From: a virus
Lineage: Duplodnaviria > Caudoviricetes
Reading direction: 5' to 3' (one strand)
Length of the DNA: 30,802 nucleotides
Virus record (IMG/VR): IMGVR_UViG_3300020464_000016
Location: 1 to 30,802 of that record
Part shown: piece by piece, positions 12,152-12,883 of the stretch
Layout: the number at the start of each line of letters is the position of its first letter
How positions within the stretch are numbered: position 1 is the first letter of the stretch
Notes under the pieces: model-generated
Seen by the model: the letters and a program-made list of their open reading frames with translations, nothing else
The model's database searches: none
Told to the model about the DNA's origin: nothing
Made by a program: the position numbers and the translations under genes

Positions 12152-12265
12152 TCAACTGTAAACTTTGTTTTTAACAAGATAGGTAACGCCGCGATACTTC
12201 AGCTTCGCTGCTTTGTCAGCGGCTTTTTGCTCTTTGAGTCGAGCTTGCAGTTCAACATTAGGCAT
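12152..12265 (-). CDS. DUF4278-like small peptide (37 aa)
   Basis: Manual translation MPNVELQARLKEQKAADKAAKLKYRGVTYLVKNKVYS carries the L.YRGV.Y signature. GGAG RBS at 12272-12275; lies directly downstream of the riboswitch-like motif. Confidence 0.75.
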   Translation of the reverse strand: MPNVELQARLKEQKAADKAAKLKYRGVTYLVKNKVYS

Positions 12266-12283
12266 GTTAATCTCCATTGAAGT

Positions 12284-12506
12284 ATCACACCCCCGTTCCA
12301 TGGTGTGAGTGTTATGCGTCCAGCATGTAAGTCTCCTCTAAGAGTACACGTTGCAGACTATCTTTTAAATACTCATAGTATTGCTGCTCCACTGGGTCTC
12401 CACCTGGCCAGTTTTTGTGGGCAAAGGTGACAGCCTTGTGGAGCATTCGCAAAGAGGTGACTGTAAATTGTAGCTCGTAGATGCTTTCTTCCATGTTGGA
12501 TGAACG
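12284..12506 (-). ncRNA. Downstream-peptide (glutamine-II) riboswitch-like element, interrupted by a nested ORF
   Basis: 5' half CGTTCATCC (12498-12506); 3' half GGACGCA...TCACACC-ATGGAACGGG-GGTGTGA (12285-12321). CGTTC is complementary to GAACG. Upstream of a YRG-peptide ORF, the known context of this motif. Confidence 0.65.
12312..12494 (-). CDS. Hypothetical cyanophage protein (60 aa, 'WPGGDP.EQ' motif), nested in the riboswitch-like RNA
   Basis: ORF-track ORF with ATG start and plausible helical composition; I recall the motif from other cyanophage small proteins (unverified). Confidence 0.65.
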   Translation of the reverse strand: MEESIYELQFTVTSLRMLHKAVTFAHKNWPGGDPVEQQYYEYLKDSLQRVLLEETYMLDA

Positions 12507-12514
12507 TACGTTAC

Positions 12515-12883
12515 TTAGAAGGAATATTTAAACCCGGCTTTAGTCCCAACTCCAAGCCCTTCGACTTCGAGACCTTCAGAGGTGATAGCAGAGACTTCGC
12601 CATAGGCGGAGAGACGCTTAGTAACACCGACATTCAGGCCGACTTTACCAGAGGCAGCGCCAACTTGCTCAGCGTCATCAGGAAAGGACACAGCAGGTCC
12701 ACCCTGAATATACCAGCTGGAGCTAGAACCGAGAGCATTCTCATAACCCACATGGGTTTCGAGCAGAGCACCTTGGTAGTCCTCACCGGACCAACCTTGG
12801 TTTGCTTCAACGTTTACATAGACACCAGCTGCAGCGGGAGCAGCGAAGGCAAGAGTAGAGATAATAAGGAGGGCGTTTTTCAT
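12515..12883 (-). CDS. Small outer-membrane beta-barrel-like protein with signal peptide
   Basis: N-terminal signal peptide (MKNALLIISTLAFAAPAAA), alternating Gly/aromatic beta-strands, and a C-terminal 'GFKYSF' beta-signal ending in Phe. Confidence 0.7.
   Translation of the reverse strand: MKNALLIISTLAFAAPAAAGVYVNVEANQGWSGEDYQGALLETHVGYENALGSSSSWYIQGGPAVSFPDDAEQVGAASGKVGLNVGVTKRLSAYGEVSAITSEGLEVEGLGVGTKAGFKYSF

Follow-up and report, generated by a model that had tools for sequence, protein, structure and literature searches.

Can a metabolite-sensing RNA be built around a complete protein-coding gene, and would the sensor then govern the gene that splits it? The locus that raises this question lies in a 30,802-nucleotide stretch of viral DNA (the window), a linear record of a T7-like cyanophage with genes for RNA polymerase, primase/helicase, head-tail adaptor, scaffold, and major head and tail proteins, together with psbA, hli, and an outer-membrane-like gene. 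The element sits in an island of small genes that runs from psbA to the capsid gene, the whole of it on the minus strand (Table 1). The original prediction described CGTTCA, a nested ORF, GACGCA, P2, a ribosome-binding site, and a YRG peptide, and each of these features was found at its predicted position. The conserved GACGCA is supplied by the codons GAC GCA, followed by TAA. Around a 156-nt loop, the start of the ORF faces its last codons over 13 positions, of which 11 pair and two are mismatched (A-C and G-A). CGTTCA and CGCA are separated by a 182-nt insert, and the nested ATG follows 20 nt after the stop of the upstream gene. Contigs of independent DNA runs, one of which may be the window's source sample, carry positions 12292-12791 (X6) and 12292-12529 (X5) with 0 differences, which excludes an assembly artefact. 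A promoter scan of the element stayed at chance level, and no terminator-like site was found on the minus strand inside it.

Table 1. Features of the nested element and its neighbors, in window coordinates.
Feature	Position	Strand	Basis
Upstream gene, cyanophage outer-membrane-protein-like beta barrel	12515..12883	-	Pfam PF24653 (E 5.4e-37); phrog_417
Palindrome AACGTACGTT, overlapping the aptamer 5' strand	12503..12512	-	Read from sequence
Aptamer 5' half CGTTCA, equivalent to C1-A6 of the crystal structure; pseudoknot strand	12501..12506	-	Numbering as given in PMC6698751
5' arm of predicted long-range P1, TCCAACATGGAAG; contains the nested ATG (12494-12492)	12488..12500	-	Sequence
Nested 60-codon gene, phrog_628 family	12312..12494	-	phrog_628 (E 8.8e-15)
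3' arm of predicted long-range P1, CTTACATGCTGGA; last codons of the nested gene	12319..12331	-	Sequence
Linker strand CGCA (C17-A20; 12318-12315) and stop TAA (12314-12312)	12312..12318	-	Codons GAC GCA
P2 stem-loop, TCACACC (12308-12302) with GGTGTGA (12291-12285)	12285..12308	-	RF01704 match, 27.9 bits
ATGGAACGGG, equivalent to A33-G42; pseudoknot partner strand within the P2 stem-loop	12301-12292	-	Sequence
Shine-Dalgarno-like GGAGA of the downstream peptide	12271..12275	-	Sequence
Downstream 37-aa YRG peptide, DUF4278/IF17-like, ATG at 12265	12152..12265	-	Pfam PF14105

Judged by sequence and comparison, the nest is real, and this variant of the glutamine-II riboswitch is both conserved and common in T7-like marine cyanophages. 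Sequence and comparison show an intact ligand-binding core, a class-specific stem, a start codon within the stem, coding selection, the exchange of filled and empty aptamers at one site, and an independent parallel in glutamine-I riboswitches. What the architecture does is a separate matter. We put the chances at about even that a glutamine-II aptamer, split by a real gene, exerts glutamine-linked repression on that gene.

In its core bases, the sensor is complete. All core bases of the glutamine-II riboswitch (RF01704), namely C1-A6, C17-A20, and A33-G42, are identical in the window, including the ligand contacts C1, G18, C39, and G40. In the crystallised RNA, as described in PMC6698751, the pocket consists of C1, G2, G18, C19, and G35-G42, with G18 and C19 lining the ligand and C1 contacting glutamine; the window matches it at every one of these bases. 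The wild-type P1 of that RNA starts AUCCA and ends UGGAC (PMC6698751), and the base of P1 in the window has the same ends. Complementarity of CGUUC with GAACG and the C19:G41 pair are likewise present; the pseudoknot strands are invariant and therefore give no evidence of covariation. P2 has 7 pairs in the window and is kept in 52-53 of 53 unique aptamers that carry a nested gene (hereafter filled; those without one are empty), with two-sided changes, and G42 is conserved in 53 of 53. The window aptamer lies 5' of a short DUF4278-like YRG ORF, and YRG peptides stand downstream of most loci, although the match of the window peptide to PF14105 (E 0.0039, 17.9 bits, from a query without the first Met) does not reach the cut-off of 25.3. 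According to PMC6698751, the P1 loop was replaced in the crystallised RNA, and a two-piece RNA cut in the linker retained glutamine binding. Thus, the glutamine pocket is independent of the P1 loop.

Filled aptamers mostly score below the Rfam threshold. In the window, cmscan detected the 3' half alone, whose 27.9 bits fall short of the gathering score of 33, and the nested aptamer of the cultured phage S-SBP1 reached 19.6 bits. With natural empty alleles standing in for an in silico deletion of the loop, 8 of 8 empty alleles scored above 33 (50.5-57.8 bits), compared with 1 of 10 filled loci. That a standard Rfam search would miss the nested form had been anticipated, and it does so in the remaining 9 of 10. 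Because the gathering score is not reached, we class the window element as a variant rather than as a plain member of RF01704. It shares with the known glutamine-II (Downstream-peptide, type 2) form the pseudoknot and pocket bases, P2, the TCCA/TGGA base of P1, and the DUF4278-like YRG peptide. It differs in that P1 encloses a gene of 53-60 codons (127-185 nt) where the known form has a short loop, the overlap with that gene takes in both arms as well as the linker strand and the stop codon, and the Rfam score is sub-threshold.

Outside the conserved core, two further elements were seen. A possible outer helix, pairing window positions 12516-12512 with 12284-12280, would close around the entire aptamer, whether filled or empty. 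Where TTCGTA stands upstream, TACGAA stands downstream in 17 of 22 cases (against 1 of the other 63), and AAGTA is accompanied by TACTT in 24 of 25. The TTCGTA type extends over the start region of the downstream gene and may serve as expression platform; the association is confounded by lineage. A hairpin with GGGATAGACCACA lies upstream of the capsid gene in the window (11475-11450, minus strand) and in S-SBP1 (L220, ~2890-2916), and has no Rfam match.

The nested gene is a gene in its own right. Its product is predicted to form a two-helix hairpin (model pLDDT 89) and matches the phrog_628 profile, which is characterized by a WxGG motif and two helices. Other cargo proteins match this profile in 8 of 9 and 2 of 2 cases, the sole miss being an internally deleted allele. 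Relatives of phrog_628 are unnamed cyanophage proteins (219 clusters at E<=0.001). The nested protein itself has no Pfam match and resembles no solved structure at E<=0.001, and searches with Pfam, phrog profiles, and structure comparison revealed no likeness of the cargo to a recombinase or nuclease. The nested ORF is under purifying selection, as judged from pooled dN/dS among alleles of 0.11 (60-codon), 0.10 (54-codon), and 0.07 (59-codon set) for pairs of at least 60% identity; synonymous change at the last two codons is 0, against a pooled pS of ~0.5. Internal deletions in two alleles (L154 and L610) preserve both the frame and the stem. None of the 64 filled aptamers has a Shine-Dalgarno-like GGAG, GAGG, or AGGA in the 20 nt before the nested AUG. 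In 2 of 4 RNA-library runs (X15, X17), contigs span portions of the nested gene, with strand and level not given; they may derive from DNA and were not counted as expression.

The same family also exists outside aptamers. It is free-standing in the four cultured phages that we checked (S-CAM22, Syn9, S-8S55, and S-CRES2) and, amid other small genes, on six Synechococcus contigs (L222-L225, L228, L230), two of them megabase-long. Another phage lineage has a free-standing phrog_628-like gene immediately upstream of a short glutamine-I aptamer with its YRG peptide, in 10 of 74 type-I loci found with a looser motif (L232, L416, L418, L426, L431, L437, L445, L455, L473, L476; nine inspected), a recurring link of the gene with glutamine switches. 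Several database entries need care: in P0006, P0007, P0009, and P0012 a TGA stop is read as Trp, which joins the nested ORF to aptamer or downstream-peptide sequence, and these read-through fusions are likely gene-calling artefacts. P0019 looks chimeric, with two cargo classes meeting near WPGG.

The predicted long stem was compared across the filled aptamers. In a first set of 41 arm pairs, the predicted P1 duplexes range from -8.5 to -18.5 kcal/mol, all closing at the P1 base. Pairs 1-3 are kept in 53 of 53 unique filled aptamers and pair 4 in 41 of 53, as A-T (24) or T-A (17). When every internal window was tried as a partner for the 5' arm, the cognate 3' arm came out best in 36 of 41 unique arm pairs. 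Cognate arms pair better than arms swapped between classes (median p 2e-4 over 7 classes and 5e-5 over 9 classes), and still do so without the three shared base pairs (p 1e-4, worst 3.4e-3), with the caveat that these class-level values overstate independence because the cargo classes are related. The duplex of start and end has a median of -13.3 kcal/mol in 64 nested genes vs. -5.3 in 40 free-standing homologues, only 1 of which is as strong. Some two-sided arm changes can be read directly (L016 vs. L011, L595 vs. L597). Finer comparisons are weaker: just 10 of 41 arm pairs did better than their synonymous recodings at p<0.05 (median p 0.09), and permutation of arms within classes was not significant (p 0.61, 0.10, 0.15). 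The covariation expected of the long stem appeared as concerted change between cargo classes and was not significant within them. At homologous loci, the nest is present in 33 of 33 complete close relatives, and its arms are class-specific. The palindrome had been proposed as a competing fold for the 5' strand; a dedicated role of this kind was rejected, because 47 of 64 filled aptamers contain it, as do 6 of 60 empty ones, it is missing from S-SBP1, and as a hairpin it forms three pairs only. It is lineage-typical and dispensable for the nest. In the 176-nt class, 4 of 12 loci (L050, L072, L088, L120) have a second CGTTC 5 nt before GACGCA within the last codons of the cargo, which could supply a local 5' strand or be chance.

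How common is the nest? Among 34 close homologues, some of which may be near-copies of the window, both aptamer halves and the nest were present in all 33 complete loci; the 34th ends at a contig end. A protein-led scan, which took the best 80 of 529 matches, added 61 loci, of which 21 had both halves, 40 had neither, and 0 had one half only. An aptamer-led scan with the 3' half as bait drew 119 loci from 27 of 64 collection parts; after 12 were dropped on a longer 3' motif and 2 for want of an upstream CGTTCAT, the 105 viral aptamers comprised 62 with a short P1, 2 ORF-free expansions, and 41 with ORF-bearing inserts of 127-180 nt. Eight of nine inserts tested match phrog_628 and the remainder resemble those. 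In a metagenome sample, 91 of 118 matches had a P2-like duplex, and these included 64 short P1 stems and 8 nested ORFs. Taken together, the filled set holds 64 unique aptamers in 113 locus records (some contigs were fetched twice, and one is the window) with nine cargo classes, whose identity to the window's protein goes down to 30%. ORF-free expansions of the same stem measure 68 nt (L420, a long hairpin in a glutamine-I aptamer), 61 nt (L084), and 42 nt (L094). One contig from a Gammaproteobacteria MAG (L221) agrees with a viral contig (L160) in length, range, and nest and is likely a mis-binned cyanophage.

The scans of glutamine-II aptamers for other cargo gave phrog_628-like nests and no others. 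Whole-collection scans for inserts of ~128-158 nt gave 7 matches, with 2 phrog_628-like nests, and those for ~185-215 nt gave 10 matches, with 6 such nests, the rest being chance or short aptamers; lengths of 60-127 and >215 nt were covered in partial samples. No nest was found in 10 matches with other P1 bases, or among 46 GCGCA-type matches with a P2-like duplex (of 120). By blastn, the window element matched no cultured phage. A cultured example is S-SBP1 (host WH7803), in which gp32 is nested in a glutamine-II aptamer. Its record carries no riboswitch annotation, and the word riboswitch does not occur in the main text of the S-SBP1 transcriptome paper (PMC7885011). Downstream of gp32, an unannotated 35-aa YRG peptide can be read (L220:2710-2817). 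Table 3 of PMC7885011 lists a host DUF4278 gene that rises 15 min after S-SBP1 infection.

The nest is exchanged with its empty form. In the filled/empty pair L066/L069, the flanks agree at 108 of 108 positions on the upstream side and at 131 of 142 on the downstream side; the pairs L051/L093 and L126/L078 have the upstream gene and downstream peptide in common, and in other pairs the downstream flank alone is close. Two alleles (L079, L126) look like deletion products that kept parts of both arms, and single samples hold contigs in which the cargo between 12321 and 12498 has been replaced. The protein tree implies 3-4 changes of nested state, with the bootstrap unsettled over 62 columns, and is still compatible with one origin. 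Filled inserts start like an empty P1 ending ATGGA in 47 of 64 cases; 14 of 60 empty P1 stems have the form TCCnnnnGGA, and 8 of 40 free genes end in ATGGAC and a stop. A short common TGGA may have guided gene capture.

A second riboswitch class shows the same arrangement. In the tandem glutamine-I (glnA, RF01739) aptamers of T4-like phages, of which five cultured-phage records were checked, Syn9 has two nested genes, gp196 (phrog_6471) and gp197 (phrog_504), and S-CAM22 has one (phrog_504) beside a short stem. As in the glutamine-II form, the gene lies inside the stem between CGTTCA and CGCA with its ATG in the 5' arm, at stem position 5 in each of the three, and a YRG peptide follows; the riboswitch class, the phage group, the tandem cores, and the cargo are different. 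The original prediction looked for different nested ORFs in related phages: these were found in the glutamine-I aptamers but not in the glutamine-II aptamers, where all cargo is phrog_628-like. A separate glutamine-I scan detected no nested ORF among its 120 matches, with a pattern that does not fit the second T4-like tandem core. That one geometry recurs with three unrelated cargo families in two riboswitch classes speaks for selection and against accident, although a permissive loop would also attract repeated insertions.

These observations suggest how the nest could work. The long-range P1 would pair the start region of the nested gene with its last codons, and in every one of the 48 unique arm pairs the predicted stem takes up 2-3 bases of the nested AUG. 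Since the start codon lies in the predicted stem that joins the aptamer halves, glutamine sensing would likely shut the nested gene off: the filled aptamer would bind glutamine, and binding would hold P1 shut. Ribosomes would be able to start on the nested gene when glutamine is low or while the 3' arm has yet to be transcribed, and a ribosome there would unfold the sensor. In 63 of 64 filled aptamers, compared with 21 of 60 empty ones, the stop directly follows CGCA, which would place terminating ribosomes over the binding site. With the start codon paired and the stop placed just after the pocket strand, we infer that folding and translation of the nested gene should be mutually exclusive on any one molecule.

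Folding was predicted with ViennaRNA at 25 C (pseudoknot and ribosomes lie beyond its model). The ligand-free probability of the P1 base has the same median of 0.79 in 52 filled and 49 empty aptamers, and the predicted cost of the binding-competent fold is 4.8 kcal/mol in filled vs. 5.8 in empty ones, so a nested gene does not have to disable the sensor. For the long P1 of the window, the ligand-free probability is only 0.001-0.03, depending on the flanks, which fits ligand-driven closure and also a weakened allele; the nested AUG is unpaired with probability 0.41 in the free state vs. 0.00 in a bound-like fold. Across the set, however, the long P1 exceeds 0.5 without ligand in 31 of 52 filled aptamers, in many near 1.0, and would therefore leave little for glutamine to switch.

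Such ligand-free closure fits a kinetic brake. In the RNA phage MS2, a long-range stem closes over a start region and translation is allowed only before folding, a form of long-distance control that, unlike the nest, involves no ligand-binding aptamer. One account of the nest, to which we assign a substantial but minority probability, is that P1 is a tolerated landing pad and a ligand-independent brake: the stem would be kept for downstream control, and the nested gene would be translated on nascent RNA before closure at any glutamine level. The shared flanks of filled and empty alleles, the swapping of cargo at the bases of the stem within single samples (joint 12321-12498), the ORF-free expansions, and the free-standing state of most homologues (40 of 61 protein-led loci) all suit this account, which has a precedent in the ORFs of group I intron loops as described in PMC3984707. 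A neutral passenger could start in the loop, yet the AUG lies in the stem in all 48 arm pairs and in 3 of 3 glutamine-I nests, and the stop directly follows the pocket strand in 63 of 64 filled aptamers; moreover, in ~20 of 52 filled aptamers the stem is marginal without ligand, as a switch needs.

It is improbable, by contrast, that the insertion simply inactivated the riboswitch and left halves that are relics or are renewed by recombination with empty alleles. The sub-threshold Rfam scores of the window, S-SBP1, and most other filled loci, the low predicted P1 probability in the window, and the evident recombination at the nest site are what a dead switch would show. Against it, none of 94 complete protein-led loci retains one half alone, the synonymous sites of the last two codons are frozen, and the P2 stem changes on both sides among filled alleles. 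Recombination cannot renew the class-specific arms, because they reach into coding sequence absent from empty alleles; their class preference persists once the shared base is taken away.

We consider it very improbable that the nest is a mobile DNA cassette whose arms serve as terminal inverted repeats for insertion and excision: presence/absence polymorphism at one site and a weak preference for the sense strand (better pairing than antisense in 30 of 48 arm pairs, worse in 17) would agree with this, but the arms differ among all nine classes, include G-T pairs, bulges, and mismatches, and have in common three pairs only, which empty aptamers also possess, and the cargo resembles no recombinase or nuclease. 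Two known kinds of element were also rejected. A non-autonomous element with terminal inverted repeats should show a terminal repeat shared across copies, and the nine classes have none; for a group I intron with a loop ORF, no ribozyme-core Rfam match was found in the window at E up to 5.

Under glutamine-linked repression, the bound state would still turn on the IF17-like peptide, as the Prochlorococcus type-2 leader does: PMC6212724 describes that leader as an ON switch in a Synechocystis reporter, and by analogy with this one reporter the peptide downstream of the nest may be switched on too. The folding model is neutral here, neither supporting nor testing this half of the switch: accessibility of the downstream ribosome site stays the same in the window (0.32 vs. 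0.31), and it rises in only 10 of the 52 filled aptamers and 16 of the 49 empty ones. A full reciprocal, nitrogen-dependent toggle, in which bound glutamine locks the nested start and activates the IF17-like peptide, translation of the nested gene dismantles the sensor, and the arrangement has evolved at least 2 times in cyanophages (glutamine-II in T7-like and glutamine-I in T4-like phages) with three unrelated cargo genes, is a tentative extension of minority probability.

Glutamine riboswitches in phages have been published as such (PMC9004378, PMC9964418, PMC9602691), and PMC12379486 concerns host deletions. A full-text literature search, with subscription journals mostly outside its reach, returned no description of a gene inside a riboswitch aptamer, whether glutamine-I, glutamine-II, or any other. 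The accessible part of the founding glutamine riboswitch paper (PMC2864571) mentions no such insert; in its supplementary alignment, the P1 loop region is ~85 columns wide by eye. The closest parallels are of other kinds. Homing-endonuclease ORFs of group I introns, as treated in PMC3984707, also place a protein gene in a peripheral loop of a structured RNA, sometimes over its core, with a conflict between expression and folding; here there is no ribozyme or splicing, the RNA that carries the gene is a metabolite sensor of 50 nt, and the cargo cannot be recognised as a nuclease. The Neurospora TPP riboswitch, by the account in PMC3597705, also acts by long-distance pairing, but there an intact aptamer competes with a site ~530 nt away and steers splicing, whereas here the aptamer itself is split by the coding region.

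Riboswitch aptamers are assumed to be compact and separate from the genes under their control, an assumption on which search tools rest. Yet about 4 in 10 sampled viral glutamine-II aptamers of one subtype (41 of 105) are split by a gene, and most of these are invisible at the Rfam threshold. Phage riboswitches are therefore undercounted, and split aptamers may hide in other classes. Matched empty and filled alleles, and the cultured pair of S-SBP1 and Synechococcus WH7803 with a filled allele, offer material for experiments. If the coupling to glutamine is true, the nest would be a new wiring of ligand sensing to translation, with phages reading the nitrogen status of the host during infection; if the toggle is true as well, it would be a new riboswitch logic, a sensor built around the gene under its control.
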